From Camelus dromedarius (Eukaryota), in contig NC_087436.1 of NCBI RefSeq assembly GCF_036321535.1, forward strand, positions 69,628,001-69,692,000: DNA of 64,000 bases, written 5' to 3'. Each line of letters starts with the position of its first letter. Position 1 is the stretch's first letter. The notes below the pieces were generated by a model, which did not search any database, was not told the DNA's origin, and was given only the letters and a program-made list of their open reading frames with translations. Below are positions 2,680 to 47,822 of this stretch, piece after piece. The position numbers and the translations under genes are program-made.

Positions 2680-3912
2680 CCACTGGAGGAAGCAGAAATC
2701 AAAAAGAGAAAAATAAACTTGACTTCTTAAAATAAGAATACCCATAAAGTACAGCATATCAGTGTAATGCACAGTAACCTTTGTATTATCTGAGTCTCTA
2801 AATTACTATTTGGTAATCATGTTTCATATTTTTTAACTATCAAGATTTTATTTATTGGCCAAAAAAGGTCAAGGACTTTTTAGGCCCCCATGTTTTTGTC
2901 TCAAGGTGCCCAATGGAAATCAAAAATCAACTAGCAGGTAAACATTTTATTCACCCTTCACATTCTTTTATACAGTTTTGTAGAACTGTTCAACACCTCT
3001 CAATCTAAACTTTACCAGTCAATATTTTGCTAAGATATTGAAAAAAATGAACAGAATTAAACACATTTTTAGGAATGACAAAATAATGAAGAAACATCTG
3101 CATCTTATTTTATATCAAAGACAACTTTTTCTGTCCTGCCTGGCAATACCAGTATATGGAGTTTGATGCTGAACTGAGGTCTGTTTTATTCCAGATCTCA
3201 TTTTTTTTTTTTTTTGCATTATGTTTCTTTCACATAAAGGTAAATATATTTTGTAATTTGGGAAAGAGTCACAAAGCAGAGAGGTGAGTAAACTGAAGGT
3301 AAGTTTGAAAAAAAGCAGTCAGCTAGTTGAATGAAGCACAGGTTATGTTAAGGAAAGTATTGTAAGACTTGGTTGGAAGGATAATTTCAGTTTCACTCCT
3401 TATGTGAATGCGTAATAGTAAGATGTTTGGACACAATGCACCACGTACCATGTAACCAACCAAGTGGAAATTTGGGAAGATAAAAGAAGCAAGATACAAA
3501 AGTTCCACTGCCTCATGTGGAACATGGAGTTGTGTCAATTGTGTCTGAACAACTAACCTGGAACAATAACTTGTCCATCCACAGCATCCCACGTAACTTC
3601 CCACCTATCCCATTGCCTTAGTTCCAACTTTTGAACTTAATATTCTGTATATTGTCTAGACTCTCAAAGGCAACATTCTCTTTTTGGATTAGTACCTGTT
3701 CTATCTTTGTCCTAGTAGACTTGAGGATCAGACTGACCTTTGCTTCCCCACATTGCCACTGACTAGCTACCCCAACTGCCTTGGATAGAAAATGGAATAA
3801 CAAACCAAACAATCTGCCTTAACTTTAAAAAAAAGTTACATTAAATTAGTGTACTTCAATGTTGAGTTAATTTTTTTTTGTCTCTGACCACATGCTCTCC
3901 TTTCTCCCATAG

Positions 3913-6124
3913 GTTTTCAGGAAGACATCTAAGATGAAAATATCTTTGGTTTTTCTGTTATGGCTTCTCATCAAGGCTTCTAGTTTTCCTCAGAATGGTT
4001 CTGTGTGCCCTTGTGATTCATTATATTACTTACCCATTTGCTTTACCTATTTTCACCATAGAATGAACTGGGATCAGGTACAGGTATGAATCTATGATTT
4101 TGCTTAGAATTTTAGTCCTCCCCCTTGTGCTCTGGTTCTTTCAAACCACTTACTTATGACACTAAGAGTTGGAGATGGAATTGTTTTATTTTAATTCAGC
4201 ATAATGTACATGTTTATACAAAAAAATCAGGATTAACTTTTCTACTTTCCCTCCCCAGGATATGTGTCAACAACATGGTTTTCAGCTTCTCACCATCCAA
4301 AACTTTAATGAAGCTTCTGCCATTGCTGCTTTGATAAAAAAAAAAAAAAAAGCACACAAACTACCAACTGAATGAAAACGTCTGGACTAGATTAGAAAAA
4401 CCTATTCTGGTACTGCTAAAACATATTTCTAAAAGAGGAGATAGATAAATAAATAAATATATATATTTTTTCTTTGTTTTCTACGTGACGAAGGAAGCAA
4501 TAGAGGCTTGCCAGTTAACCTAGACACTTATGCTTTTGGTCTTTTGGTTTTCATAAGATTTTCCCAATTTCAAGACATTGGAAAATTATTAACTAAATTC
4601 CACATTTTTTAAATTAATGAACTCACAACTTGTGGAAAATATAAATTTCTTAAACTTGTCTTGACAACCCAGGTGCCTCTGGTAGGTCACAGAGTTTTTT
4701 TCTAGGGAAGGTATCATCAATGTACAATGTTTTTTATTGTGTGAGTTTATGGATATCACTTCTGTAAAGAGGATTAGAATCATCTCTGCAATATTTGCCA
4801 GATTTTGCCAGATTTATTTTAAGAGTTAAAGAATATTCTACTAAGTGCATTAGTAACCTCTCATCAACTCCTTTTGCTTATGCAACATGATTTTGTTGCT
4901 ATATTACATGAACAATTCTATTACTGTAATAATATTATACAAAATTCCATAGCTATTATACTATTACAGCCAGAATAGTATTCTGAATACTCAACTCAAG
5001 GGACCCAATATAAGTACTGGAATATTAAATCTCTGTAAGCTATTAATTTTATCATAAATACTTTTTTTGATCTCTATTCTCAAAGGTTTTGCTCTCAGTA
5101 TTTTAACTGGTCTTGTATTCATGTGTTTGTTTCATTCATTTGAAAATAATATATTAGTTGAGTCTGCATAGTAATTGCCATCTATCGAACAATTACTGGT
5201 TTATTTTTATTACCATCAGAATTATAATTTTCTCAGCTATGCGATAAGATAGCCTGTAGTCTACACTAGATCCTGGAATGGTGAAGTTCTGTATCATGAC
5301 TGACAAATTGTAAGAGCTCTTGCTCTGTGGTTTATACCACATTTGTATTATAACATGGCCAAAAAGTACTTTGCCTTGGTAACTTTCAGCTTGTTAATGA
5401 AAACTTTTCCCCTCTACTGGGATTCATCATTGTACTTCAGAATAGCCAGTGGAAAATCATTTGTCGACCTAGAAATGGACCACATATACCACTATATGTC
5501 ATTATATAAGATGAAGTCACTATAAAAGATGAAGATTGTGTGGAACTTGAAGCAACAGAAGGTGAGAGTATTTGATAATCGAAGTAAACAATTAAAAAAC
5601 AAAATCTGAGTTGTACCAGCAAGACCTCTTCCAAATTATTTGTACTAGTATTTCCCAACGTTTTGAAGGAGATGAAATTGATAGGTCTAAAAAGAAAGAG
5701 TTCCTAACCAAAAATGAATTTGCAATATTACATTCTGTAATCTTTCTCCTGGAAAGTTATAAAATATATCAGCGAATTAAATGCTCTCAAAACTCCCAGA
5801 GTTAAAAAAAAAAAAAAGGTTTTGAGGATCTTTAACCAACACTTACCAAATGTATTTGACCATGGATTTTTTTTTCCCCTTTACCGGGTAACATTTTGCA
5901 AAGTAGTATTTAGTTTTGCAAAATGCAGATTCAGATTTATTAATTGAGTACTACAAGGAAAAATATATGTAACAGTCTCAAAACTGTTGGAAAACTACTG
6001 ATTGTCACTCGATTTTTATAATTTATTATATGCAGGATCTTTGAAGTAGGATAACCCTCACTGCCAATAAAGAAGGCCCTTCTAGTGTCAAAAATTTCAA
6101 GTCTCCAAATGTTGTAGTTTCTGA
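3913..6124 (+). pseudogene. Multi-exon pseudogene of a secreted single-domain C-type lectin (REG4/lithostathine-like long-form CTLD)
   Basis: Four AG/GT-bounded, phase-compatible exons. Exon A (acceptor 3912 or 3920, ATG 3934, end 4083): MKISLVFLLWLLIKASSFPQNGSVCPCDSLYYLPICFTYFHHRMNWDQVQ. Exon B 4259-4409: DMCQQHGFQLLTIQNFNEASAIAALIKK[+1 frameshift in A16 run 4336-4351]KHTNYQLNENVWTRLEKPIL. Exon C 5441-5561: NSQWKIICRPRNGPHIPLYVII*DEVTIKDEDCVELEATE-G. Exon D 6036-6124: SLK*DNPHCQ*RRPF*CQKFQVSKCCSF*. Signal peptide, CP..C..YF..W, C...G..L..I....E, VW.(G>R)L, EDCV, (W>stop)D...C and PF.C motifs occur in canonical CTLD order. Premature stops at 5507, 6047, 6068 and 6083. Confidence 0.8.
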
Positions 6125-8859
6125 ATCAACCTTGGAGTTTGGAGAAAACCCTATCTTAACACTAACTACTTTCACAGTTATAAGGATAAAAATACTTTCC
6201 ATGGCCTTCCATGGTGAATGTGGTATATAAACACTGTTTAAGTGATTTATTTTCATTGATTTGAGAAGAAGCCACAGTTTTCTTTTTTTCTTTTCAAATC
6301 AGACTCTTCCTGGCCAATGTTTCTTATGTGAACAAAAGCCAGAAAGTTATAAAAACAGGTATGATTGAAGGGCACTTGGAGTTTCAAGTTAATTAACTAT
6401 ATGTACAGTATTATTGTAGAACTCAGAAAATAAAATTCAGAGAACTTGTTACTCAGTTCCTATCTATTTAGGGAGCTATACTGACTTCTGTATCAGACAC
6501 ATACATCCCTAAGCATGGTGCTAGGCACTAAGGTTAAGATAAAAAAGATTTTGTTCACATTCTAATGGAAAAGCAAGAAAATAAACAAGTAAATGAAAAA
6601 TGTGCTATGATTACCAGATTATAAATAATACGTAGATGTATATTAGCTACATCAAAACTCTCTTATGTGCTTGTTACCCCTTTTACTGGCAAATATAATT
6701 CTAGCCATAGCCTGTACATCCTGACTTGCTACAATGCATTAAATATTAATGACTGACAGATTATGGAGCTACTGATTATTTCATTTGTTAGAACAGTTAA
6801 TTAAGAAAATTTCCATCCACGTTTGAGTAGGATTAACATTGTGCAAATCTTCGAATTTCTGCTTTTAAGTAGTTCTCTGAATTCCTTTTGGAGCGCTTTC
6901 TTTCCTCTGTTGTGTGTAGTCTTAGGGTGAGGGCATGTGCACAGACCTGATTTTCCAGCATGGAAGCTCAGTGAACCAGATCCTAGTTCTACATGCTCTG
7001 GCTATAAGCCAACATGATCCAAGCTGGACAATCAGACCCTCTTTCCTGGGATTGTGAATCTTTACTGAGTAACCTCAAAGGGAAGACCAGTTTAGCTATT
7101 TTTGCCCAGCCACTGTGTAGGGTTCAGACTACTCCTGCGAGCTGCCCTCGTTCTTCTGTTGTCTACCATTCAGAGCTGCCTTTTAAATTCTTTAATTCTG
7201 AATCCTCCTTTCCAGTAACCTTTTGCTTAAGATAGCCATAGCTGGTTTCAGGGGTTTATAAACAAGAACCAAAAACATCTGATGCTTGAAAAGCCCCTTA
7301 CTCCTTAGTTCTAGAACAAAAATAGAGAAATTTAGACGCAAAGGGAGAAATGATGACTATAGGCTTGGAATTAAGCAAAATGGTGAAATTTCAGATTAGG
7401 CACTTACCCAGTCTTTCTCTGACCACATAGGTGGTATTACTTCACCAATCCCACCAAGAACTGAATAACTTTGTTACCTAGGACCTCCCGTAGCATTACA
7501 CCCCTTAAAAATCCACACAATCCAGTCACTGTCTTCTGCTGCTAACCTTTCAAAATCTCCTCTTGTCCACCAAATTCTAGGTGTCCTATGTCTCTCATTG
7601 GCATAATTCTAAAATCTTCTAAGTTACTGAGTTTGAAAAACGAAAACAAAGTTTACTGAGTACAGAAAATCAATGTATATTTTGATAGATATAATTACAC
7701 AAGACCCTGTACCATTACCAAAATTCAGTATTTAAAACAGGTGAAGTGATTTTTGGTAAAATCCATTATTATACAACCTAAATGCAGCTACATGGGGCTT
7801 CTTTATTATATGTCTTCTGTTAGTTTAATAAATGTGAAAGTCTTACATATCTTCAGTAATAATCCCCGAATTTCTATATTTATAGGCCCCTTCATTTTGA
7901 ATATTGGATGAAAAAGAATGAAGTCACAAAGTTAAACAAAGTAACTGAAAGTGATGGAAAAAACAAGGACTGTAAGGTAGCCAAATCTGAAGGTGGAAGA
8001 AGAGAAAACGCCACAATTACGGACTATTAAACAATGGAGGAGTGCCTTTTCACAAATGTAAGTTCATAGCTCATTTTATTTTTTCTTTTTATTCCACTTT
8101 GTGTATTTCTCTCCCTCTTTTCCTTCATTGCTTCTTTCTATCCTTCATTTTAGAAATCTTCCTTTCTTATTTCTGTGAATATTGTTGTACAAAATAAGCA
8201 AGCCTAAAGGGCATGTGTTCCCCAAAAACTCAACTTCTAACCAACTCAAATATGGAATAATTATGAATAAAACTGAAAGTTTTGATTCACTACTTGTTGA
8301 AAAGTTTTGAAAACTTTTTTGAGTAGTATAAAGTGCTCTCATATTTAAAAACTTACTGAACTGTCTTATTTACCATATTGGTTTCTAGATGTCAAGAGAC
8401 TGACAATTCCTTCAGTCATACTTATTTTGAAACCCTTTTTACTCAAGTTATTAATTTTGTGCTGTAAAAGCAATAATAGTCCAAAACACTAAAGAATATT
8501 ATTTCTATACTAATTATTATTCTCCAGTGTAAATTTATATTAGTTAATGAAAAAAAGGTTTAGTATTCTATTCAGGTGGTGTCTTCATTCTTGTATTTTG
8601 CTTTCTTTCTCATTGCTTTCTTCTTATTTTTTTTTCCCCCAGAATCATTCATTCCAGAATCGCTCATCAGAGCAAAACTTGACCTCATTTCTGATGATTT
8701 CCTTGGTATTCTTCTCCCTCTTTATTTCCTTTTTCCCCCCAAATCAACAGCCCAGAGCAAAATCCACAAATGTGGCTTGATTAAAATATTTCTGTTGAAT
8801 GGTTGCTGAGGTACTCTAAAATGTCTCCAAACTTCAGTTTCAGAAACTTTGAAGGGTCT

Positions 8860-18983: not shown

Positions 18984-20414
18984 GTATTATGTTTACATAT
19001 GGCAAAATTATGATGATTTCACTTTGTCTAAACTTTCTTTCCACTCCTCATTTATATGCATTTGTAACTTTTCAAATATTGATAACTTGGTGTCTGTAGC
19101 TTAAAAATGCATTTGCAAATGTTGATACTATCTATCTTTAGCTTTAGGTGAAAAATCATATAGTTTTATAAACATCAAATAATTTTTTGATGACTTGGTA
19201 ACTAAATTCTCATAGATGAAAAAGTAGATACATAATTTCAGTAAAGACTTGTGGTGAAGTAAGTTGAATTATCTTTGTTCAATTCTATGGAAAGTTGTTA
19301 TGCAGAATAATTTATAATCTTTTTAAGTGTCATGGGTAAGAGCATTTCTGGTAGAATATTTCAAGGCCACTTTTTTCCATGCATAAGTTTAATTAAATTA
19401 ATTCTATAAAGGATATGTCAAAGATAGACAAATAGATATAACTAACTACTTTTGTAAAGATGGTTATAGTTGGATATTCAGAAGGATGCAAGTGGATAAA
19501 AGTAGTAAATTTATTTTGGGTTTATAAATATGTCTTCTTTACTAATGCATTCAGATTCTGCAGTTTGTAAACTGAAACAGTATATATAAAATATGGCGGT
19601 ATTAGTTTGTTGAATAAAGTATGTATGATCTGTATTTTTTCTAATTTTTCTGGAAACCATTTTTCTAGCACATGTAAATGAAAGTATTTCTAGGTTCTTA
19701 TAATTTGATGGAACTCTAGAAGTCAAACATGATATGACATCTGAATCTTATGATTCTGTCCAGTTCAGTCTTCCTCATATAGTCATGTCATGGATATACC
19801 AATGCAGCAAAATATAAAATAATGGCTAAATTCTTTAAGAAAATAATTCATGGAAGATAAGTTTCTATATAATGCACCAACAGTGTTTTTCTTAAAGACT
19901 CTGAATGAGCAGGATGCTCTAAAATAGATTTAAAAGAGAAAGACATTTTTTTTAAATGTCAGATTAAATTAAATGGGTTCAGTGGGTTTTAGTTTACTAT
20001 ACATTTTAACAAATCTAATGATCTAAGAGGATTTTTTTTTAATTTTAACTGAAATATTTAAAAATTGAGTAGTATTTAAATATGAATGCCTCTCTATTCT
20101 TCTGACAAAACCCTATTACCACTTCATGGATCAAATGCGTTGTTTTAGAGTGTTAGTGAATAAAAATATTAATAAGAGACTGGTATTTCTTATCTCACAC
20201 AAGCACTAAGCAAGATAATTTGAATGATTAACATTTATATTGAATAGCAAAATTAAAAATTTAAATTAGTAAAAATATTAAACAAATGAAATTATTTTTA
20301 TTATAACACACTCCTTTGTTGGGAAATCAAGGATTTTTTTTTTCATATGAAACCAAATTTTATTATCAGACCTTACTCTTTTTCTGTTGTTTTCTTACCT
20401 AGGTCTTGACCACC

Positions 20415-23400
20415 ATGAAGCTTCTCATCCTTACCTGCCTTGTGGCTGTTGCGCTTGCCAGGCCTGTGAGTACCACAGAGAACTTAGAAGGTTCTGGGTT
20501 CCTGTTTGAAATCACCTGATATCACATCAAACACAAGATACTGAGAATAATAAAGTGTTGGATGATCTCTAATTAGCTATTGAAGTCTTGATATTAAAAC
20601 TATGATAATCCTTCACATTTTGGTCATTATTATGTAGTTCATTCAGTCTTGACTCCAAATAAAATCTCTGCTTGAAATATAAATCTCTCATGATAAAAAA
20701 TAATAATAATAATAAAAAAGTAAAGAATAGAAGAAATAAGGTATCAAACAATGTAACAAAGAGCATCAAAGAATGACATGAAGCTCTTTCCCTGCATCCG
20801 TTACAGAATTAGCGTATTTGTAAACATATTTGTCCAATGTATGTCTTTACCAAATATAACATAAAGCCGTATAGTCCAGTATTTTCTACTTTTGGAGCCT
20901 AAGTCAACCCTCAGTTGAGATGTCTTGAGTCAACCAAAATTTCCCCAGGTATAGAAAATTAGGCTCATTCTGCTGATTTGGAGATTGAATTGTTTGTGGT
21001 CCCTGTAGACAGTGAAATTAGATAATGTAAATTAAAATAACCCTTCTCAAAAATAAAACAAAAAACTATTCAGTTACTTACATAAAGCAAAAAGTTATTC
21101 TGTTTTCCCTTGTGATGCACAGCTAGTGCAGTGAAAGGAGTAAACAGGAATCACCTGACAAGAAAACAATTCAGATAAAATAATGGTCTTGGATGCTTGG
21201 ATATTGAAACTATCAAATACAGATGCAAGTTTCTGAAATGCTGAGATACTCTATTGGACTCTAATTTTCTATATCCATATTTAGAAAATGCAGGATCACC
21301 AAGAACTCAACTTCTTAACTTCTTAACAGAGTTTTGTTTATGCTACACCCTAAACACTAATAGAAAGAAATCTCTGACAGTAAGTTACAAAAATAAATCC
21401 AAGTCCTTCAGAAATGTATCATTGGAGTAGTCCTTATCTTGTTCTTTTACAAATGAAATGGGTATAGTTTCCCCAGTAAAAAAATAGTTTCCTACAGTCC
21501 TATTCCAAAATAACCCACATCATTTTTAATGTTACCACCTAACAAACATAAATTTTGTCTCCACAGTTAAAATGAAGATTGAGATAAATTTTTGTATGAT
21601 TTAATTGGTGATAGAAATAAAATCCAGACAAGCAACATTTAATTAGGAAAAGTATACATTTTGCTCCAAAAATGTATAATGGTTTAAAGTCACCTTTAGA
21701 ACTACCATGTAATATAAATTGTTCAGAAAACTAAATCATTTCTTTATCATTCTGGATTAACTCAAACTAGTTCAGAGTTTTTTGGGGGTTTTTTTGAAGT
21801 CTTTTTACAAAGTTTTCTCAATTCTCCACCATACTCTAAAGAGAGGAAATAATTTACTTTTTAAATTTTTGTCAATAAAATATATTTTTTCCTCCCAGAA
21901 AAACTTGGTGTCAGACAGATTTAGCTATTAAAATACAAACTTTTCTTAAATAGCAACATTAAATTCATAGTATTATATGTATATTGTGATCTTATTATTA
22001 TTGTACTTTGATTGCTTTTTGTTTTATTTTATTGCTATATAATTCTTGCTTTGTTTTTCACAGAAATATCCTCTCAGGTACCCAGAAGTCTTTCAAGTGA
22101 GTGTTCTAGTCTACGTTCTGAGAACTCACTCTAACTGTGGAACTTAAGTGGTGGTGTATCGGTAATACATAGACTCTAGTCCTGTGCCTCCCCTCTCTAT
22201 AAAGTCAGTTTCACATTCACTAAGGTATAATATCTTCAGGTCAAATATTGAACTGAATATCGATCTGCTCTCACAAACCATCTTAGAAAGAAGGCACATA
22301 GACTTACATAAATATTTATGATTAATTAATACCTTATTATTCAAGTGCAATAGTTAAGGATATGTTAGCATGATTTATTTTAAATTATTATTGCTTCTTT
22401 CTAGCTCTTTTACTTGCATTCAAACATATAATTTGCAATTTGCTCTCATTTTACACACTGAATCTTCCACACCCTTCTACAACAGCCATTAATCCACTCT
22501 GTCCTCTAATGGAATTAATACCTTTTACTTATTTTTTTATTCTTTGCAGAATGAACCAGACAGCATAGAGGTAAAGTTCTTTCTTTCCCCCAGCTATTCT
22601 CTCTTTCAGTTAGCTATGATGACTGTTGCATGTCTTCCTCATTTCATTTATTTTCCTTCAATTGTATCCAGGTACACAAGGTACTTGGATTACTCTCTTA
22701 ATTGTCTGTTTTAATTAAATTCCTATTCAATCCCTCCTTTGACATTTGATAAGTATGTTACTAAACTTGTGGGTCTGGTAAAGAAGGAACCAAATATGGT
22801 ACCTCCTTTAGATTTTAAAATTAGATCCTAGAACTACAACTAATTCTCTTATTTCACCTAAGAAATATTCTGGTTTACTAAGTGAACAGAGAACTTTTGT
22901 TCAAATGGAAAACATACTCCTTTTGGGGTGCATTTTTCCTTTTTATAATTCACAATTTAATATCTACAGGAAGTCCTCAACAAAAGAAAGATTCTTGAGT
23001 TAGCAGTGGTAAGTGTTATCCACTTATTCTTCTAAAATGACAGCCAAATTCTTGAAAAATCAACATAATTTTTGTTTGCAAATGTTTTTTCACTTGACTT
23101 GATTAAACCTTTACTTCATTCACTCTTCCAAGCACTGAAAAAGAATATTGAAATCAGATAAACAAATATTAAAAAGCTGCTTTAAATTTTAATTTGTACC
23201 TTTGCAAAACACTCATGTTTTCATTTGCATAACCTATGTAGAATTTTACAATTTCCATGTTCATTATAATGGAATGTTCTTTATCTCTAGATAATACCCA
23301 CTATGTGTTGTATTTTCAATAATTTTGTGACTGACTTGTCAAGTAGAACACAAACAGAAATTTTACTTCAAGGACACTGTATAAAATATTTGATAGGCAA

Positions 23401-26400
23401 CCCAACTTTGTCTGAATGATTTTTAACATAACCTTCCTCTTTTTCTGTAGGTTTCACCCATTCAGTTTAGACAGGTAAGAAATTGTCCACAAGATATACT
23501 GTAGAGTTAACAAATGGAAGCAAATTTTGTTCTCTCCAGTAAGTATTGTGGTGTTGTGCCAATTCTTTACTGCCTTTTTATGGAAATAAACACTAGCTTT
23601 TTTGAACCAGATAGATGAGATCAAGAGAATTCAGAATAATGACTAAAACAAAATGAAAGATAAGAACAACAAAATTTAGTGGGATAAAATTTTAAAATAT
23701 TTTTAAGTGCACATTTACATACTGACAACTTTAAAGAAAGCTTAGCAAGGAGACACTTAATGCAAGAAATGATACAGCAAGAAATATTAGTGCAGTCACA
23801 AAAAAACACATTCATCTTTTAATTTGCAGTAGCAATGTAAGGTATGTTTTCTCATAGATATCCATTCATTTGTGTCCCTCTTTACTAATGTTTCTCTCTT
23901 GTTTCCTGTCCTTAAGGAGAACATCGATGAACTGAAGGTAAGGACCATCAATGATATTTAAATTATTTTAAAAGTTAGTCCTTTCAAAAAATATATTTTA
24001 CAAGTTACACTTTATTGGTTTCAGCAGAGAGAACTTCTGAGAGAAACACAAAATGATGAACTCAAGGCACCAACCTTTTCTTAAGATAATGTGGCAAAAA
24101 AATGTATTCTTGCAGTAGAGAAAGTGTTTTAATTTAGAAAAAGAATATTTGTCTTACTTCATTTATACTTCCCATAAACTTTCAAAATGGCTGATGAATT
24201 CTACTGAGAATTCTAAATATTGATTTTATTGATTTAACTTTAAAGCTGTGAAGAGACAGGGCCTTAGTATGAATGAATAAATGGATGAATGAATGAATAA
24301 ATGCAATTATAGACAGTTGTCTGCACTTAGTATCAAAACTGAAAGAATGATTTATTCAGGGTATTATATAAAGCAACGTATCTGCTCTAAGAATGTTTTA
24401 CATAATTAGTTATTATTCACTTTCTTGAAAAATGATTTTTTGGATCTGGATTCTCTACCAGATTTTTAATAGAGGCCGTTAAGAGATCACACAGATGCTC
24501 AAAATTTGTGAGATAAAATAAATATCTTTGTAACTATTCTTCATACCTGAATGATTATCTTTGATTATCTTTTCTTGACAGGATACTAGGAACGAACCAA
24601 CCGAAGTAAGATTATTTTTAAACTATTAAATATAAGGAAAAGAAAGACGTAAAAACATTTCCTTTAAATACCCTGCCCAAAATGAATAAATAAGTCTCTT
24701 AAGTCAAAACTAAGACAGATATCTCTAATTCAAAGAAAAGAAAATACAGCATAGCATATGAAAGCCAGAATTAACTGAATAACTAAACCAACACTCAAAT
24801 TCTATGGATCATGTCACTACTCTGTCTATTGCTTTGGTCATGAAAACTGAACGCAACACACCAGTTGGAAAAAAATCCATTTTGCTTAAATATTTATATG
24901 CCATTGAACTAATGCACTTTTATTTACCACATCACCTTTTTAATATAATGCTCCTGCTTAACATCCAAGACCAAGTTAAAGAAAGAAGTAAAGCTAATTA
25001 AAAGAAAATAAAGGTTATTTACATTGATTTATCACAACATATAAGAATCTACGGTAGTTTTTATTGAACTCTGAAATGCAGATTAGTGAGGTAAATTCTT
25101 TGGTTAGCCTGGTAGGCAGGCTATTTTGTTTTCCTTATCACTTGGCTATTGTCTCAAATTTATATTTTCTTTGGCATCTATATATTTGGTAATTGTTATT
25201 TTACATCTGAATATTTATCATAAAAAATAAAGTTAATTCTCTTTTCTTTTCTCAGGATCACATCATGGAAGACACTGAGGTAAGACCTTTGTTTTAATAA
25301 ACTGTATACTTATGTATTATACATAGTATGTGCACTATGCTTTACTTTATCAAAGCTGTCTTCTCAAATTGAGCAAGATTGAACTTTTCGACCAGGACTA
25401 TTATAGCCAGGAATGTACAATGCTGCGCCAGATAAAGTTAACATTAGAGGGGAGAATCTGTCATTTAAATGATAATCAGTGAAGAGTTTGTCAGAGATTA
25501 GGTTCTTGTCTCCTCGCAGAAAGAATTCAGAGATGAGACACTGAGGTCAAGAAAGTAAAGCGAGGATTTATGAAGGTATAGAAAGGACGCTCTCAAGGGG
25601 AGAGCGGGCAGCCTCAGGTGAGCAGCTGTGCTCAGTTTCTTTGGCAAGCTGGTTACTAGTAGAGTGTAAACATAAATGGGCGGAATGTTCATTGGAGAGG
25701 GAGGGGTTGGGGGTCCTTTCCCTGATTTTCATCCCAGCTCCACCTTCCCAAGGGGAGGAGAGATTTTTGTTCTTATTTAATCTTGTTTGAAAGTGTTGTG
25801 GCGTAGGTACTTCTGATCCGCGAGGCTGATTTTATTGTAATGAGAGCATAGTGAACAAAGGGTTACATTTAGATGCTGGAGATTCCTGCCTTTCCCACCT
25901 TTCTTTTCCTGCTTCCAGGACACCTGTCACCCCAAAATGTGTGAATTCTTATCAGTCCTGAGGTTCCTGCTTTTCTCTGTCTGCCCAACTAACCCTGTTG
26001 TTCACAAGATGTATGGTTTCCTGCCATTTAGCCGGTTCTCCCTTTCTCTGCTCATTTCTGTCTGCTCTAACAAAAAACATTGCTTATTTATTAAAATAAA
26101 GAGTAAAAAGCAAAATATGTATGAATGTTTAAAATGAACTATAAGACTCAAAGAAAACCCCAAAAACCCAAAAGCCAAAACCTGCCTCTGCCATCCAGGG
26201 TATGAGCTCATTCTCTTCTACACTGAGGGCAGTCAGTCCTGGGGCAGAAAGAACCTCCTGCAACAATTACTTAGGATCCATGGGCTAGCCCACCTAATCT
26301 AAAAAGATGGGGAAAAATCCATTAGCCTCAAAAATTTGGTTAATCACGTCTCCCAAGAGATGAATAGTCTGTTGCATATTAAAATCAATCTTTTAAATAT

Positions 26401-29400
26401 GTCCTTGGGAACAAAAATTATATCCACATGCAAATATAAACATCCGTGACTTAGGGGAAAGAAAACTCAATATTTCAAAGCATAGCTGTTTTAAAAATCT
26501 AATGTAATTTTAGTTCCACACTTAAACTGGTTGTTATATTTTAATGTTTCCAAGTTATTCCAAGCATAAAAAGGGCCCCAAGTGTATGTGAGAATGAATG
26601 CTCAGCCTGGGGTTCTGGGAAGCCCAGCCCAGTAGGGCTCTTCCTTCCAGGTTCATTTTTATCACAAAAATTCATACACATTTTACATTCTAGTCAATCA
26701 TGTATCTGTGTTTGTTTTAATAAAAAATTGTTTTGAAGTTATCAGGGAAGTTACTATACTTCCCCCTCCAACATATTTTAAATGAAATTGACAGACCAAG
26801 AAAGTACATAGTATTGGCCCTTTATATACCACTTGTTTTAATTCTGAACAAGGAGTTAGCACCCCGGTATGAAAGTGTGGGGCTAGTTTCCTTCCACTTT
26901 TAAAATCACAGGATCAGTAACACTGATTTTCTTTTTTTTTTAAGCGAAAGGAATCTGGAAGCAGTTCAAGTGAGGTAAATCATTTTGATGTCAATTCATT
27001 ATCCCAATCAGAAAATGTTTATGAAAGCTTATTGTACCATGAAGTTTACATATCCTACAAGGTCTGATTGCACAAGGCACTTTGTATACAGCACTGTCCT
27101 CATTTTGACACACATGGATATCAACCCAACAGATGTATGAAAACAAATATTTGTCAGAGACAAAATTACAGAATTGTTTCTGGACAAGCAATCCTTTCTG
27201 ACTATCTGTGCTGCCCAAACATTTTTTTTTCCTAATTTTTTTGCCCTTCCCAGATTTTGATAGAACTAAATCTTGTCATTAAAAATTACAGTAATGGCTA
27301 TGTTTCTAAACCAATGATATCAACATGTTTTATCCTGTGTAGAAATCAACCAATTCAAGGCTAATCAGACACTGGAATCCTTTGCTCCTTGTTAACCTAA
27401 AGGAGAAAAAGAGCAGGCATAGGAGGTCATGAGGTCCTTCCTTTAACTTTGGGAGAAGACTTTCATTCAAGTTACAAAATAAAACCAACTCAGTTATGTG
27501 GAGTTTCTGGGAATTCAGTAAAAGTGAATATTTCACATCCACCTTCAACATTCTGAATAACTTCCTTGGTTAAAGCAGTGAGAAGGGAAAAGGAAACCTT
27601 GAGTATAACATGCACCTCAAATTATTCATCTTGCCTCAGTTACCCAGGAATTTGTGGCTAAAGTCAGTTTATTACAGTTAGTTAGCAATATAGTCTCTGG
27701 TTAATTAGTATTCTTACCTGAAATGTAAATTAATAAATCAAAAAACTAACATGGCATGTTTTAATGTTTTTAAGGAAGTTGTTTCCAGTACCACTGAGGT
27801 GAGATATATTTACCAAATTTAAAATATATTAGCATTATCCAGGATATGTTTAAAATTTAATTAAACAATTTTTTTTTTTTTTTTAGCAGAAGGACATTCT
27901 CAAGGAAGATATGCCCTCCCAACGCTATCTGGTAAAATTTTATTAAAAGTTTATCAAAGGCAAAGGTAACAAGGAATGAGAAGAACGTTGCACTGATAAA
28001 TTACTGTTCCTTAACACTTGCTAAACATTAATTCATAGTAAGTAATCTAACAGACTCTAGATGTTTACTGATCCCCTCTGAAAACAAAACTGACAACTTT
28101 TTTTAAATCTCAGGTATTTAATTCATGCTTTCATTTAAATATTGTGTTTTATAGTCTACTTTTAGATCCGAATAGCACGGTATTTAAAGGGTACTCTGTA
28201 AGTCTGACTAGACTTGAGTTTGACTCTAAGCTCTACCTTTTAGCAGCACGTGGTGTTAGATAGTTTACTTATTTGCTGTAAGCCTATAACTTAAATTATA
28301 AAATGACAATATAATAATAAATATTAAATGATGTAAAGCAATTAATGCAATCCATAGCACAAAGTAAGCTAAATGTGGCTAGTATCAGAAACATGATCAC
28401 TTTTTGCCCACTTCATCTAATATTCTGATTTCAATTGGCCAAAGTTAAATCCTCGGTCAGAAAGCACAAGTCATCTTCAATTTTCTTAGCCATTCTGACA
28501 TGAAACACCATAAGTAAAATTGCCTGAATATCATTAATATCTGACTTCACTGTAATTTATTTTAAGTTAACAGTAAGTTGAGAAAGTGTTTTTTTTAATT
28601 TTTAAAAAATAATTAGATTAGTCCAAACTATTTGTGGTAGAAATAACATCAAAGTGAGATTAATAGCCCCTCATTCTCTACTCCTGAGAAAAGGCACGTT
28701 AGGATTCTAGCTTTATTACTTGAAAATGCTGGGATTGGACTGAATGGTATCCAAGCAACCGACAATATTTTTGTTTTCGAATAGGAAGAGCTTCACAGAC
28801 TGAACAAATACAAACTACTCCAGCTGGTAATATTTTCATTATAATAATACAAAATTGTATTCTGCAGAATTAAAGTAGTTAAATTTTAAATGGGGTTTCT
28901 TTTAAATATGTTTTTTCAAGAAATAATTTATTCTAGCCTTGATCATGAATAATAATTGGCGAATGCTCCATATGCTTCTCTATGCACTTATTGTCACAGC
29001 TATTTCTTTCTATTTATGCTGAGACTAATGTGCTGTATCACATCCATAATTACTATCCAGAGGGAAGTTTACTTTAACTAAATTCTACATCAAATCCTCT
29101 TAGAGCCTCCCAGATGATATATTATATTCAGGAATTTATCCTGTCCTGTCTTTATTTTCCCAAATTCACTACTGGATGGCGAGTCCATAAAAAAGCTTGC
29201 TCATGAAAGCACAGATATGCCAAATAAACTTTCCATTTAAGGAAACTGTAGAGTCTGGAAAAAGAATCAGGAGTCCTAGACATTCAAATTGCTTTTGTCA
29301 AAATTCTCTAAGAAAGAATCAGAGAGTTGATTAATCTTATCCCGGAACTTGTGTCCTTATGTATGAAATGGAAATATAGTTATTCTCACATCCTGGTGTT

Positions 29401-31562
29401 ATTTTGAATATTGAATGAGCAATCTTCTACTCAGTTATCCCTTCATCTGGTATGTAGCGAGTCCAATAAAATGTTCATTCCTCCTTCTCCTAACCCCACT
29501 CCCCAGTCTCTGTAAATTTTGCTGTGCCCATGAGACTTCTGACAACATTATGAAGGTCTTTCATCAAGAAGTGCATTTGAACTATGATGTCATAAACTCT
29601 CTACCCACTGATGGTATGGACAGATCAAAAATGTATCAATTAGCACAACCCTTCTTTGCTACTTAGTTTTGATCCTTTTGACTGTAATAGTCTTTCAATT
29701 GGAAGGCCAAAACATTTTTTTCTTTTACTTATAGCAATTAAACTTGACTTAATTAAGACTTTAGGGAAAAGAGCTTGCCTTAGTTTAGCAAAATTATATT
29801 TTCACATTTTGTTCTATGTGTAGGAAGAGAGAAGTCAATGATGAATTTAATTTGGACCTCAATTGTTACTTTTGTCTCAGTTTCCAAGTTGCTGGTGTTT
29901 AAAGTCCAAGGAAATTTAAATATATCTGTACTCTACCAGAATTCATCATTTCTGATCTAAGAAACTACTTGAATAATCTATTTCAGTACCTTAGCTGTGA
30001 TGCGACCAAGCTGCAAACTCCACAAGTGTTAGAACTCTGTGGGTTTTGCTCAGAATGTCATCATATTTCGTAGTTGATCCCCAGGATTTAGCTTAGTCCT
30101 TGAGTGAATGAAAGCACCAAGTGAATGTTATTCAGACGTGAATAAAACCAGTATACTAAAACAAAATGTTCTCTCTTTCTTAGGAAGCTATCCGTGACCA
30201 GGTAAGATTATTCATTAAATCTAGAATATTTAGTACTTTCTTCATGTCTATGTCTTATGTTTTTATAATGTATATTCCGTTTTCTTTTTTTAACAGAAAC
30301 TTATTCCAAGAGTGAAGCTGTCCTCCCACCCATATCTGGTAATATTTTATTTAAAATTTACCAAAGATAAAATTTAAATAAGTGATTAATAGTCGTGAAC
30401 AGAAAATATGTAATCTTAGGGAAACAGCAGGTTATTATTTCCCCACAGGGTACTGACTTTATAAATATATAAAGTATAGCCTTTAGTTAAATAACTTTTC
30501 TAAAATTAGAAAATAAAAAGCATATTGCTATTTTTTCATAATTTTGGCATGGAATCCAGTTTATCCTAAATTCATGAATAATGGTATACTCTGGGTACAT
30601 TGTAAAATGAATGTGTGGTACCAGAAGATGTTTAAGTAATTTAAATGTATTTCCTTCTATACAGGAACAACTTTACAGAATAAATGAGGACAACCACCCC
30701 CAACTGGTAATATTTTGCTTAATAAATGGCATGTTGATAATATATTGTAAAGCTTAAATACATTTGTTTTTAAATAGCCTCACACTTTTGAAGAGATTTC
30801 TCTTGTCACTCTTCTTTGGAATGGGAGCCATTCTGTTCTGTCTCCCCTAATGTGAACAGCACGTTTATAGTTATAAGCACTATGAAGTGTTAATCTCCAT
30901 GGTTATGTTAATTTCTCTTTTTAACATTCTCCTTAATTTTATATCTTTATGTCCATCATTTAATTCTCAAGTTCAATTTAGGAAACTCAAACTTAGTTAC
31001 GTTATGCCTCTTAGGCAAAGCATATTGGAGATTTACTAGTTGACATGCTTGTGAAGAAACCAACTGAAGAGATGCTAAATGTCTTGGTCAAAAACTCTCT
31101 GATCCTCTGTTTTCTGGTCTGTGAAGTAAGTTTATCAATAATACATAATAGGAACTGATTCTTACACCCAACATTCCATTGATTCCATAGTGCTTCTAGG
31201 ACTTCCGATTTCATTTTTAAGGCAATAACCAGGTACTGTGAAATATATGCTACTATAACAATTCTGATTCCCATCAATAGGTACGGTAATTCCAATCATG
31301 GAGCCCTCCAATCTCTGCTTGCTGCTTAATGAATCTTGTCAGGATTGTTGAGGATGTTTCATATGTTTTAGAAGAAATGGTTTTTAAATAATGCAATTGG
31401 CAAAATTAATGTCAGTTCCCATATCTCTAACATGAAAAGCATTTCGGATAGGTTGCTTCTTCCATCTTTGATTTTATTCAGCCTTAAAGAGTGACTAACC
31501 CGATTCTCTCTCTCTCTCTTTTTTTTCCCCCAGGGGGAGCCTGTGAAAGTAGTGACTCAGGT

Positions 31563-31607
<45 letters not shown>

Positions 31608-34121
31608 GTTTTAATACTGCCCCAAATTATCTATTGGCAGTCATTGTTTTTTTGAAATGATTGTACTAGTTGCATCATGAACTAGTGTTGTGCTAGTATT
31701 TCTCAGGTGTTGACTAGTGTTGGATTCTCCAGTGCTAGTTCTAACATTGCTATGAAAGATCAGATCCAACTTGCCAAATTCCTTTGAAAGAATGATTCTA
31801 TGGCCATCCCTGAGTGAACTGAGCTTCTGGTCAAATTTTAAGTCAGGACATTCTCAACCAGCTTATTTATGTGTTAAAATTAGACCTTTTATTAATATAG
31901 TATTGTAGTGAAAATAACTTGAGTTTTCAGTCTGAGATCTAACACCTTCTAATCATATGACCTTGAGCAAATTGTGTTGTTCTCTTTGAAAACTGCTTTT
32001 TCATTTGTGAAATTAATATGGAACTATCAATTTATTTCCTCCTTAAACTCCTATATCCTGATTTTTGCAGTGTTCTTCTCTTGTGTCTTCACTTTTTAGC
32101 TGTAGTTAACTGTGCATTCAGCTCAGTTGCTTTGGTCTATTGATAATTCAACATATATATGGCATGCTAATTTTTTAAAAAAGTATGTAAAGAAAACCAT
32201 AGAATTTTCTTTATAATTATGTGATTAGGGAGAAAAAAAAAACCTTTCCTCAAGATTTAAAACATCGTAGTCATCAATCAGTTTTATGATAATGATTCCT
32301 CACTGTGCATCAGATTTTACTCTCAATTTCTTCTGAGATTCTCTAATTACTGCTTGACCAAAGGAAAAAGAAGAAAAAAAAAAAAAACAATTACTCTCTT
32401 CATTTGAGCTCCAAAGAGTACATTAGCAAGACTTTTCCATGTAATTAAAAAAAAAAGCAAGAATGATAATTATAATCTTAAAGAAAGTATTTGGTAGTAA
32501 TAATTTAGTCTATCATGGTATTTGATGGGATTTAAATTGAAACTATTTTTTCCTCTCTGTTAAGGAACAGGCATACTTCCATCTTGAGGTAAATTGACTT
32601 TATTATATTTAATTTTTTTATCTAAATGACTTAATAAAGAGAAAATCCCAAATACCATATTTATTATAATCTTTACATGAAATTCTTTCATTTTTTTCTA
32701 ATTCCATCAAAGAACACATAACTTCCACTTACCAGTATAGAGAATTACTTGAATTCATAGAAACAAGTAAAATATAATAGATTAATAGTGGCAGCTGTTC
32801 CAAAATTTCAGAAAGGAAAATAATGCTTTGTTAACAAAACTGTATGATTAGGAAGGAGCACTGGGCTAGGAATTGGTGAATTATTTTCTCCTTATTCCTG
32901 GCATTTCTGAAAGCCAGCTGTATTGACCCTTGGGTGGGAGGTCCTTCCTTCCCTTCCTTTGAGCTCAGTATCACCATGAAAAATTAAACTGTAGAATTAA
33001 ATGGCAAAAATTATCCTTTCTAGTACTAATACCCATGAGTTTATACATTATGTAATAATTAAATTCACACAACTACTTTCCTCTGTACTCAGGGGATTGA
33101 ACCCCTGTTAGTAATGCAGTATCTTGGAATTCAATACTGACTATTGACCTTAAAGAAATGATTTACTCTGATACCCTAAAAAAGCCCTTTCCAAAAGTTA
33201 CTTCACCATGATCCACCAAAGGGAAGAGTTTGATTTCTCCTTTTTCCTCAGAGTCAATAACTCTTGTGATGCCACTGGCCATGTTGGAAATGAATGAAGT
33301 GATTCATTTTCAGCAGTTCAAAACAGCAGTTTCTCATACATTGTTGCTTTTTCAATGGTCTTTCTCTCTAGCCTTTCCCACAATTCTTCCAGCTTGGTGC
33401 CTCTCCCTATGTTGCTTGGTATTATCCTCCACAAGTCATGCAATATATTGCTCACCCCTCATCCTACGACACCCCTGAAGGCATTGCCTCTGAGGACGGT
33501 GGAAAAACTGACGTTATGCCACAGTGGTGGTGGTAAGTTCATATAAATCACTGCATATTGATGTTCTATCAAAGGAAATAAAAGAAAATTGCTTACAGAG
33601 CATACCATAAAAACAGATTAGAATAAACACGACAAACCAACACTTAGTGCTTCATGCTAGAGTTTTCTGAAATGGAAAATTGGTAATAATTTCTGGTACC
33701 TATGGCTAATTCATTACTAGGAAACACATGGAAGTGCTATATATTCTATAGGTGAAATTCATTCTGATGATGGCAGGGGAGAGAAAAACACTTCTCTCCT
33801 AAGTGAAAATACAACAATTCAACTTTATCTGCCTTTCACTTTTACTAATCTTTAAATGTCTTTCTTTTGGTTCTACCCATGATACACATTAGACTAGAGC
33901 ATGAGGAATAAAGCACAGATTTTGGCATCCAATAGTCTTAAATTCAAATCTTGACCTTTTAAGTTTACTTGAAATAATATAATAATGTTTATTTTTGTAA
34001 CTTTGAAGGTGATTAAATATAATAATCTTTGTTAAGCACAGTGCTGGGAAAATAAATTTAGTAAAATTTTATTGCTCATTACCTACGTCACGTGATTTTA
34101 ACAATTTTTTTTTCCTTCAGA
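20415..34121 (+). CDS. CSN1S1: Alpha-S1-casein precursor (230 aa), spliced CDS across exons 2-20
   Basis: Coding exons (AG..GT): 20415-20465 MKLLILTCLVAVALARP; 22064-22096 KYPLRYPEVFQ; 22550-22570 NEPDSIE; 22970-23008 EVLNKRKILELAV; 23451-23474 VSPIQFRQ; 23917-23937 ENIDELK; 24582-24605 DTRNEPTE; 25256-25279 DHIMEDTE; 26945-26974 RKESGSSSSE; 27775-27798 EVVSSTTE; 27887-27931 QKDILKEDMPSQRYL; 28785-28826 EELHRLNKYKLLQL; 30184-30201 EAIRDQ; 30297-30338 KLIPRVKLSSHPYL; 30665-30706 EQLYRINEDNHPQL; 31534-31560 GEPVKVVTQ; 32565-32588 EQAYFHLE; 33372-33532 PFPQFFQLGASPYVAWYYPPQVMQYIAHPSSYDTPEGIASEDGGKTDVMPQWW+TG; stop completed by the A at 34121. All phase 0 except the split stop; SSSSEE phosphorylation cluster present. 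Confidence 0.98.
24025..24066 (+). pseudogene. Fossil (non-functional or cryptic) alpha-S1-casein exon in intron 7, QRELLRETQNDELK
   Basis: cag|CAGAGAGAACTTCTGAGAGAAACACAAAATGATGAACTCAAG|gcacca: 42-nt open phase-0 exon lacking a GT donor. Resembles the human QRNILREKQTDEIK and horse QRELLKEKQKDEHK segments, at the same position in the protein (sequences from memory). Confidence 0.75.
25489..26072 (-). mobile_element. ERV solo LTR in CSN1S1 intron 9
   Basis: GC-richer block in an AT-rich intron, bounded by TG (tgtcagag) and CA (ctctaaca) with LTR-like content. TSD not clearly resolved; boundaries and strand approximate. Confidence 0.6.
28190..28385 (+). mobile_element. MIR SINE (degraded)
   Basis: gacttgagtttgactctaagctctacc...gtttacttatttgctgtaagcc...tgtaaagcaattaatgcaatccatagcacaaagtaagc. 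Confidence 0.5.
31566..31603 (+). repeat. (TG)19 microsatellite immediately after the exon 17 donor
   Basis: Direct read: gtaac followed by (tg)19. Confidence 0.95.
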
Positions 34122-46100: not shown

Positions 46101-47822
46101 TTCTTATGACAACAAATGGGCTCTAACCCTTCGGATTCTAAAAGAATAATAGTCATTGAAAATTCATTATAATAACCTTTGATATATTTGTTCCCTTGTT
46201 ATGTTTAGGCTTCAAATGAAGTATAAGACACAAATATTCTCCTGTAAGGATCTTATAACCTTTGTGAAGAGGCAGAGTATATTGATGTACCATTTAACTA
46301 GCAGATGATGACAGATCCCAAAAGAGTGATGCAATGATTAATATCTACCTGACTCTTGCAGGCAGATTTAGGACTACACTAAGTCTCACAGCCTCTTATT
46401 TCCTAGATCACTATCATAATTACAAAATGTCCCTATTTGCATGTCTGCCCAGTCACAGCATTGTAAGTTCTATGCTTCCTTCTTTCCAGTTTGTACCATA
46501 GCTCTTACTCTAATACAGAAAGTGCTCAGTAAGTGTCAAAACAGTGAATGAGGTTAACGTAGAGTTCAAGATAGAAAATAGGACTCTACAGTTCATTAAA
46601 AAAGGGGCCCTGTGACACAATTTCAAGTAGGAAGCCAATTTAAAACCTGCTACAATACAAAATCCTACAGATGTTTATTCTGTCTTTAAATGTATACAAT
46701 GGAAATTTACATTAGAATTTACAGGTCAGAACATAGCTACATTGGCTTAACTGCCCTACTGTTAACACAAAAAGAAAGATAGTAGAGTATTTTACTGTTC
46801 TACATTTGGGTAATTGCCTTTAAATAAACACTGTCTTACCTCACTGCTTGAAATGCTTTCCAAAGCCTATAAAGGAAAAAAAAAAAAATCAACACCCAGC
46901 TGAGTCTTCTCCTAGATCATCAGAAAGTGTTATTATTTTATGGTTGGAAAATTTTCTCTGAATAAAAATGCCTTACCTCACCGGCTGTCTTGAATTCTTC
47001 CTTCTGTAGAGAAAAAAACACCATTTTACTTTATATAACTAACTCATTTTTAAACATTTTTCCTACCTAATTTTTATCTTCCTTATGCAGAGGTAGCTAA
47101 TTCACAATTCGAGAAATAAAAAGTGGTTAAAGGTCATTTGAGAGTCTTGAAGTGTAATTGTTTCCTATGTCTTTTATACTTAGTAACTTTTTTATTGATA
47201 CAGTTTTATTTTACCTGAATGAAGAGTTTTTGATGGGTAACAGAATAGGAGTTATTTTAGTTATTTTAACTTGTATTAAAACTTTTTATTATGATTATGA
47301 ATGTTTCTGAGTATTGCCTGAAACTCCATCCTCTGTAGTATCATCCTCTGTGGAATAGACATAGGTGGGGTTTGGCCCAGTGCCCTAGGGTAAAAGATGC
47401 ATGTATCTCATCTCTGAAATTAGAAATATTTCTCTAGATTGCACATGCATGCCATTGTATTTGTGCAATATTACTCTTTTTTGTTGTTCTTATGTGTGTT
47501 TCTGCTTTTTCCTTCTTGCTTATTGATTTGTTTGCTTTTCCTGTAGGGACTGGTGGCAGAGTAACGTACAAAGTATCTGACTCGAATTTGTGATCCTGTA
47601 AGATACTGTTGAGAGAGTGGGTGAATGTAAATGATTATCTTAGAAGTAAAAAAAAACCCTGAAATTCTGCATTATTTATACCTTTAACATGTTGGGAATA
47701 CTATTGTCTACACATAGGCAGATGGCACCATATATGACTTATTTAGAGACATTTTGTGTGTGTTTACTTACCTCTCTTGCAAGAGCAAGAGCCACCAGGC
47801 ATGCAAGGATGAGGACCTTCAT
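43104..47822 (-). CDS. CSN2: Beta-casein precursor (232 aa), spliced CDS across exons 2-8
   Basis: Coding exons on the minus strand: 47772-47822 MKVLILACLVALALARE; 46977-47003 KEEFKTAGE; 46840-46866 ALESISSSE; 45816-45839 ESITHINK; 45676-45720 QKIEKFKIEEQQQTE; 43709-44227 (519 nt, DEQQDKIYTFPQPQ...GLHPVPQPLVPVI, seen inside ORF 43640..44350); exon 8 43068-43109 begins GCC TAA (stop 43104-43106). All phase 0. Confidence 0.98.
45170..45330 (-). mobile_element. MIR SINE in CSN2 intron 6
   Basis: ttttacagatgatgaaattgaggcacagaga...ccaaggttacatggctgataagtg. Confidence 0.65.

Follow-up and report, generated by a model that had tools for sequence, protein, structure and literature searches.

A probable unitary pseudogene of an unnamed REG4-like lectin gene directly upstream of CSN1S1 in the dromedary

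Exon structure of the locus

We analyzed a stretch of 64,000 nucleotides (nt) from the genome of the dromedary, Camelus dromedarius (NCBI RefSeq assembly GCF_036321535.1, contig NC_087436.1, positions 69,628,001 to 69,692,000, hereafter the window; positions below are counted from its first letter). The window consists of mammalian DNA rich in AT (GC about 0.33), and its first 9 kb hold the relic of a multi-exon C-type lectin gene, located upstream of CSN1S1, the gene encoding alpha-S1-casein. A reading made earlier from the letters alone (the original prediction) had described four exons with proper splice sites and compatible phases (0, 0, 1), encoding a signal peptide and a long-form C-type lectin-like domain (CTLD) with six ordered cysteines, and all of this was recovered in the exons at 3934-6096 on the + strand. 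The gene was not complete at four exons, however, as exons 5 (7886-8057) and 6 (8658-8780) had been missed. The features of the locus are as follows.

Exon 1, 3913..4083, + strand: acceptor ag at 3911-3912, start codon ATG at 3934, donor cag/GTATGA
Exon 2, 4259..4409, + strand: acceptor ccccag/GAT, donor ctg/GTACTG
Exon 3, 5441..5561, + strand: acceptor ttcag/AAT, donor gaag/GTGAGA; ends in phase 1
Exon 4, 6036..6096, + strand: acceptor tgcag/; final CTLD strand with the last two cysteines
Exon 5, 7886..8057, + strand: acceptor tatag/G, donor AAT/GTAAGT; Lys/Glu/Ser/Thr-rich stalk
Exon 6, 8658..8780, + strand: acceptor ttccag/AAT; open, stop codon TGA at 8778-8780; C-terminal hydrophobic anchor
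CSN1S1 (alpha-S1-casein), 20406..33530, + strand: signal-peptide exon 20406-20465, last coding exon 33372-33530

The six coding exons of the lectin are collinear on the + strand, and the relic keeps five introns; because these introns are retained a retrocopy was rejected, and the original description of an intron-containing CTLD pseudogene stands. Exon 1 contributes 50 open codons (ATG 3934 to 4083), which encode a hydrophobic signal peptide followed by the first two cysteines of the CTLD, exon 2 covers CTLD helices alpha1 and alpha2 up to the 'WTRL' strand, and exon 3 corresponds to the long-loop region up to 'CVELEATE'. The end of exon 4 was set at 6096 by the C-Q-x-L-P junction of the pig, elephant and horse proteins described below, with the Leu codon split 2+1. 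The product of exon 6 has a Kyte-Doolittle mean of 2.36 over 17 residues. Six ordered cysteines are a feature of long-form CTLDs, and in the relic these are found at residues 25, 36, 53, 128, 145 and 153, with counterparts in pig at 25, 36, 53, 124, 141 and 149; the relic has additional cysteines in the CTLD (27 and 103) and in the stalk (185 and 209). The position just upstream of the casein cluster also agreed with the original prediction, the signal-peptide exon of CSN1S1 lying about 11.6 kb downstream of lectin exon 6 on the same strand.

Predicted orthologues and chimeric casein models

Protein searches with the relic led to gene predictions from other mammals, of which the following were used.

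Pig (P0013), XP_020956462.1 / UniProt A0A8D2ACH8: 236 residues, named 'C-type lectin Cal-like'
Asian elephant (P0005), XP_049742136.1 (series XP_049742132-6): 236 residues, named 'snaclec bothroinsularin subunit alpha-like'
Kuhl's pipistrelle (P0004), XP_045427079.1: 134 residues, named 'regenerating islet-derived protein 4-like'
Dugong (P0014), KAM9237252.1: lectin-casein chimera, exon 5 joined to CSN1S1
Horse (P0015), A0A3Q2GSP4: lectin-casein chimera, end of exon 1 through exon 6, then CSN1S1
Warthog (P0016): lectin-casein chimera, exon 2 joined to CSN1S1
EukProt (P0017), bmy_18968T0: lectin-casein chimera with parts of exons 1 and 6; Casein domain by Pfam

When exon 1 was used in a phmmer search of 1.84 billion representative proteins, 10 proteins were found at the cut-off of E ≤ 1e-3. 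Eight of these were characterized, leaving out P0009 (911 residues) and P0010 (608 residues), each with many short stretches; six of the eight were open reading frames (ORFs) from genomic contigs of other mammals that read from exon 1 into intron 1, and two were spliced models. A word-indexed search with exon 1 among longer proteins gave a single candidate, again a genomic read-through ORF, and further proteins were added by word-indexed searches with the elephant and pig proteins.

The pig, elephant and bat predictions represent the same gene; the six-exon layout, signal peptide, cysteines, stalk and anchor are shared, and the relic is 52-62% identical to them. The pig and elephant proteins are 55% identical to each other and their models are open over the full length, in line with the suggestion in the original prediction that the gene may still be intact in other mammals; the camelid copy, by contrast, carries the seven disabling lesions described below. 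Since open full-length frames and conserved cysteines persist in lineages that lie far apart in the mammalian phylogeny, we infer functional genes in pig and elephant. The automatic names given to these predictions are inconsistent and misleading, as the gene is neither a snake-venom lectin nor REG4.

The four chimeras map collinearly to the window, first to lectin exons (within 3973-8057) and then to CSN1S1 from its exon 2 onwards (20382-33530). Those of dugong, horse and warthog are labeled alpha-S1-casein, and the horse entry also carries a Lectin_C domain. The lectin part of the warthog model covers 19% of the pig protein at 100% identity, and that of the dugong model is 77% identical to the elephant protein. 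As transcripts these models are probably artefacts, mis-joined annotations; as maps of the locus, they show the predicted lectin exons to adjoin CSN1S1 upstream and on the same strand in Suidae, Perissodactyla and Sirenia, as in the camelid. Because of this adjacency in four groups, and on the accepted mammalian phylogeny, the gene would have been present at or before the eutherian ancestor.

Homology of the relic to the predicted proteins

In tblastn searches of the window the pig protein matched each of the six exons, with E values of 5e-18, 3.5e-12, 7.5e-5, 7.5e-5, 2.3e-17 and 3.3e-7 for exons 1 to 6, respectively, and with 70% identity in exon 6. The elephant protein was likewise collinear (exon 1, E 7e-15; exon 5, 3e-14; exon 6, 4e-4), the bat protein matched exons 1 (E 6e-16) and 3 (E 1.1e-8), and exon 5 was matched by the horse (E 1.7e-10) and dugong (E 6e-8) models. 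At E ≤ 1e-3 the pig protein yielded seven matching pieces in the window (best 5e-18) and the elephant protein five, whereas the reversed proteins and 20 shuffles of each yielded none in the same searches. Because these reversed and shuffled queries match nothing, a chance pattern of ORFs was rejected.

For comparisons over the whole length, the spliced relic was translated with an X at each break. This read-through translation was 62.5% identical to the pig protein (240 residues), 58.8% to that of bat, 53.9% to that of horse and 52.5% to that of elephant, and matched a hidden Markov model built from four orthologues with an E value of 1.7e-109. The orthologues themselves belong to Pfam PF00059 (Lectin_C), with scores of 50.1 bits for elephant and 43.4 bits for bat (cut-off 22.6) and a precomputed match for pig. 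Searched on its own against PDB sequences by phmmer, exon 1 gave weak CTLD matches (convulxin alpha, E 0.079; CLEC1B, E 0.47 and 1.5), among which ranked a MOB-like protein with no relation to them, and the first part of exon 2 gave no match.

The original prediction had expected the exon segments to be better conserved than the introns around them. For exon 1, seven read-through ORFs of other mammals had an identity to the window of 201/314 (64%); for intron 1, translated in the same frame, the figure was 129/287 (45%). This modest excess comes from a comparison that is rough through local-alignment bias and because some of the source species may carry pseudogenes too. Decay is also visible in exon-1 relics elsewhere: among the genomic ORFs P0006, P0008 and P0011 of other mammals, the start Met is replaced in P0006 and the second cysteine is changed to Phe in P0008. 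These decaying relics hint that the gene was lost more than once.

Two further stretches drew tblastn matches outside the exons. The match to exon 5 extended past its end, and the stretch at 8058-8144 was considered as the anchor; it was rejected, being the T-rich intron 5 after the GTAAGT donor. This intron mimics a hydrophobic anchor in frame, and the real anchor exon lies 600 nt further on. Just 3' of exon 4, at 6120-6148, the frame reads 'INLGVWRK' and is paired by tblastn with the start of the pig stalk, 'FHLGYWMK'; this stretch may be due to chance, or be the trace of an old duplication or an alternative exon end.

Disabling lesions

Seven disabling lesions were found in the relic: five in-frame stop codons, one frameshifting insertion and one lost splice donor. 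The stop codons are TAA 5507-5509 in exon 3, TAG 6047-6049, TAA 6068 and TAG 6083 in exon 4, and TAA 8028-8030 in exon 5. As the original prediction had noted, TAG 6047-6049 sits at a conserved Trp, that of the 'LKW' found in pig, elephant and horse; the relic holds more lesions than it had listed, however, and the ellipses in the translation that it quoted hid both the insertion in exon 2 and TAA 5507-5509. The insertion consists of a run of 16 A at 4336-4351 followed by GCACACA, a net gain of 19 nt at 4337-4358 that shifts the frame: the conserved Ile/Val/Ala and Tyr are separated by 25 nt in the camelid, compared to two residues in pig, bat, elephant and horse, and the tblastn match to exon 2 is split (4256-4339 and 4359-4403) between two different frames. 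At the end of exon 4, TC at 6097-6098 replaces the GT of the donor, and use of the next GT (6101) would shift the frame.

To assess the reliability of the lesions, contigs from four other sequencing runs (X1-X4) were aligned to window positions 3800-6250. Record 4 of X1 (5885-6149) had no differences from the window, confirming the exon-4 stops and the missing donor, and record 13 of X3 (5274-5627) differed at 5355 and 5502 alone, leaving TAA 5507 unchanged. The exon-2 insertion is not an assembly artefact, because record 6 of X2 (4204-4515) spans the A-run at nearly equal length, with 160 letters compared to 159 across the masked part.

The four runs comprise about 0.9 Gb of contigs each, contain 36-48% of the sampled words and cover about 45% of any stretch. 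Their contigs cover introns like exons, run through intron 1 and show no spliced joints. They look like random genome cover, which makes an origin from RNA libraries doubtful, and because of this random cover they are silent on expression and splicing. The ends of the contigs carry SMART-type template-switch/amplification primer sequence, yet the cover looks genome-wide.

Relationship to known lectins

The original prediction had pointed to REG4, and this likeness was confirmed by ranking solved structures against the predicted orthologues. REG4 (PDB 2kv3, chain A) was the top match of both the pig (E 1.4e-19, 73.7 bits) and the elephant protein (E 4.2e-11, 46 bits), ranking first of the 92 PDB sequences found at E ≤ 1e-3 with pig and first of the two found at E ≤ 1e-8 with elephant. 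Below it stood DEC-205, the PLA2 receptor, lithostathine and CTLDs from snakes and birds. By this ranking, the REG proteins appear to be the closest sequence relatives of the gene. A relationship to the snaclecs, which are heterodimeric CTLD proteins of the snake venom gland, was rejected, as the name derives from automatic NCBI naming and snaclecs rank below REG4 in the PDB.

Like the new gene, REG4 has a long-form CTLD behind a signal peptide, and the two may also share an exon border behind the first 'NW..A.' segment, a parallel drawn by the original prediction. According to a study of the dog REG family (PMC9650133), there are five human REG genes (REG1A, REG1B, REG3A, REG3G and REG4), REG proteins are secreted in free form and measure about 16 kDa, and human REG4 maps to 1p12 between HMGCS2 and NOTCH2. 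Unlike REG4, the gene described here also encodes a stalk and a hydrophobic anchor at the C-terminus, and it is a neighbor of CSN1S1. Its orthologues, of 236-250 residues, have a stalk of 62-68 residues and a terminal hydrophobic 17-mer with a Kyte-Doolittle mean of 2.45-2.84, followed by at most a few residues. Judged by its composition and place, this hydrophobic C-terminus would serve either as a glycosylphosphatidylinositol (GPI) signal or as a type I membrane anchor that leaves almost no tail. The two additional exons thus overturn the original picture of a free lectin of the lithostathine/REG type.

Lithostathine/REG1A (1lit, 1qdd), struthiocalcin-1 (4uww) and ovocleidin-17 (1gz2) are free long-form CTLDs that match the pig orthologue less well than REG4 does (63.1, 55.2 and 31.4 bits, respectively). 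These three proteins are associated with mineral. For the new gene there is nothing comparable to the mineral tie of lithostathine and ovocleidin-17 except its chromosomal neighbor, and the link to calcium mineral and the biology of the SCPP family that the original prediction had drawn found no support.

Classical Ca2+-dependent sugar binding by CTLDs involves a WND motif together with EPN or QPD in the long loop. When the alignments were inspected by eye, the place of the expected WND was taken by 'WNN' in pig, elephant and horse, and no EPN or QPD was present between the 'WIRL' strand and 'CVEL' in these three species. Because of these replacements, classical Ca2+-dependent sugar binding appears unlikely.

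Origin of the relic

With a high degree of confidence, we consider the relic to be a unitary pseudogene and the camelid orthologue, now dead, of an unnamed eutherian gene immediately 5' of CSN1S1 and on its strand. The ancestral gene would have had six coding exons, encoding a signal peptide, one REG4-like long-form CTLD, a charged stalk of 62-68 residues and a C-terminal hydrophobic segment. In the camelid the frame is destroyed by the five nonsense substitutions and the 19 nt inserted into exon 2, together with the missing donor of exon 4, so that no lectin can be made and any transcript would terminate in exon 2. As a guess from the sequence, the intact gene might encode an epithelial, REG4-like binding protein that is displayed at the cell surface and works independently of Ca2+.

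The genome was searched for living copies in six frames, with the pig protein against the 2.3-Gb assembly. Of the 27 candidates scored four were matches, three of them at this locus. The fourth, a single-exon CTLD with 32% identity on another contig (C23:17204319-17207654, ORF 1474-1941 on the - strand), has EPN and WND motifs and reads like what we take to be the lectin domain of a selectin; it is unrelated to the relic. No intact close paralogue was thus found in the camelid assembly by this exon-by-exon search, to which a strongly diverged paralogue such as REG4 would be invisible, and it is because no close living copy exists in the genome that the relic is called unitary.

Several points weigh against this interpretation or parts of it. 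Exons 3 and 4, taken singly, did not reach significance in the tblastn search with elephant (E 1.0 and 1.8), and Pfam searches with short single-exon fragments of the relic recovered no family in 4 of 4 cases. Exons 4-6 are missing from the bat model, which runs on into intron 3, that of horse begins inside exon 1, and all orthologues termed intact are gene predictions. The linkage of the pig and elephant genes to CSN1S1 is deduced from the chimeric models of their relatives, some of which may be artefacts of ab initio prediction. The length of the A-run in exon 2 may vary, as one contig suggests a difference of 1 nt. Finally, an AlphaFold2 model of the pig protein, built from an alignment of five rows, was unusable (mean predicted local distance difference test score 33.4; predicted template modeling score 0.20), so that neither fold nor anchor is supported by a model.

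An alternative explanation of the relic is that it has been exapted, its exons or promoter serving as alternative upstream exons of CSN1S1, as part of a read-through unit or as a regulatory element. The relic lies on the same strand 11.6 kb upstream of CSN1S1, its acceptors are all still canonical, as are its donors apart from that of exon 4, and in four models from elsewhere lectin exons are joined to CSN1S1 exon 2 through their own donors, as such a use would predict. The join point, however, differs in every one of these species, which speaks against a conserved transcript, and at least some of the chimeras are likely to be annotation artefacts. No spliced joint was seen in runs X1-X4, although with their random cover this is uninformative, and a search by term of the camelid casein paper (PMC6726744) showed no such exon. 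On balance we regard exaptation as improbable. Orthology to the pig and elephant genes would in turn be mistaken if the relic were a segmental duplicate, confined to its lineage, of a lectin gene at another locus, a reading left room by the indirect evidence for where the pig and elephant genes lie. Yet there is no second close copy in the camelid genome, the warthog, dugong and horse models fuse the same exons to CSN1S1, and the identities (62.5% between relic and pig, 55% between pig and elephant) are ordered as in the species tree, which together make a duplicate highly improbable.

That the gene still functions in camelids, its lesions being assembly errors or somehow bypassed, has in its favor that the frameshift lies in a run of 16 A, a typical site of such errors. 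The five stops, however, are substitutions spread over three exons, those at 5507, 6047, 6068 and 6083 are identical in the contigs of other runs, and the exon-4 donor is missing as well; the chance that the gene is alive is negligible, and this explanation is refuted in practice. Beyond the unitary pseudogene itself, a wider reading would make an ancient, surface-tethered REG4-like lectin the conserved 5' boundary gene of the eutherian casein cluster, functional in pigs, elephants and perhaps horses, repeatedly lost (in camelids and probably in further lineages), and transcriptionally coupled to CSN1S1. If this were true, the chimeras would reflect real read-through in the lactating gland and the lectin would have a role in milk or the mammary gland; taken as a whole we hold it to be rather unlikely.

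Literature and significance

The casein locus is among the most closely studied gene clusters of mammals. A search of the full-text literature by accessions, automatic names, and locus and family terms, a scope outside which casein-locus papers in subscription journals and supplements fall, found no description of the gene. Searched by term, a preprint on the SCPP locus (PMC10888740) gives SULT1E1 and JCHAIN as its flanks and does not contain the word 'lectin', the paper on the camelid casein cluster (PMC6726744) contains neither 'lectin' nor 'pseudogene', and the sole lectin in PMC6682599 is CLEC11A. The novelty claimed by the original prediction is lessened on its own terms, as orthologues were already present in the databases under automatic names; the gene is known solely as such inconsistently named predictions.

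Lineage-specific gene death has precedents in the same cluster, in the unitary pseudogenes of casein/SCPP genes in some primates and marine mammals; CSN1S1 itself is missing from certain marine mammals and pseudogenized in catarrhines, according to PMC10888740. Those losses concern members of the SCPP family, whereas the relic derives from an unrelated lectin gene at the 5' edge of the cluster. For the camelid itself it is an ordinary dead gene, although lesions shared among camelids could date the loss within the group. As the lectin gene is kept in some mammals and lost in others, its function and the consequence of its loss could be tested in pig. On a practical note, the horse (A0A3Q2GSP4), warthog, dugong and EukProt 'alpha-S1-casein' entries that carry lectin exons could contaminate casein alignments.

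Other features of the window

An Rfam scan of positions 1-21000 of the window matched no family. The signal-peptide exon of CSN2 (beta-casein) is found at 47766-47831 on the - strand, opposite to that of CSN1S1, so that the window takes in the lectin relic and CSN1S1 as well as the beginning of CSN2.

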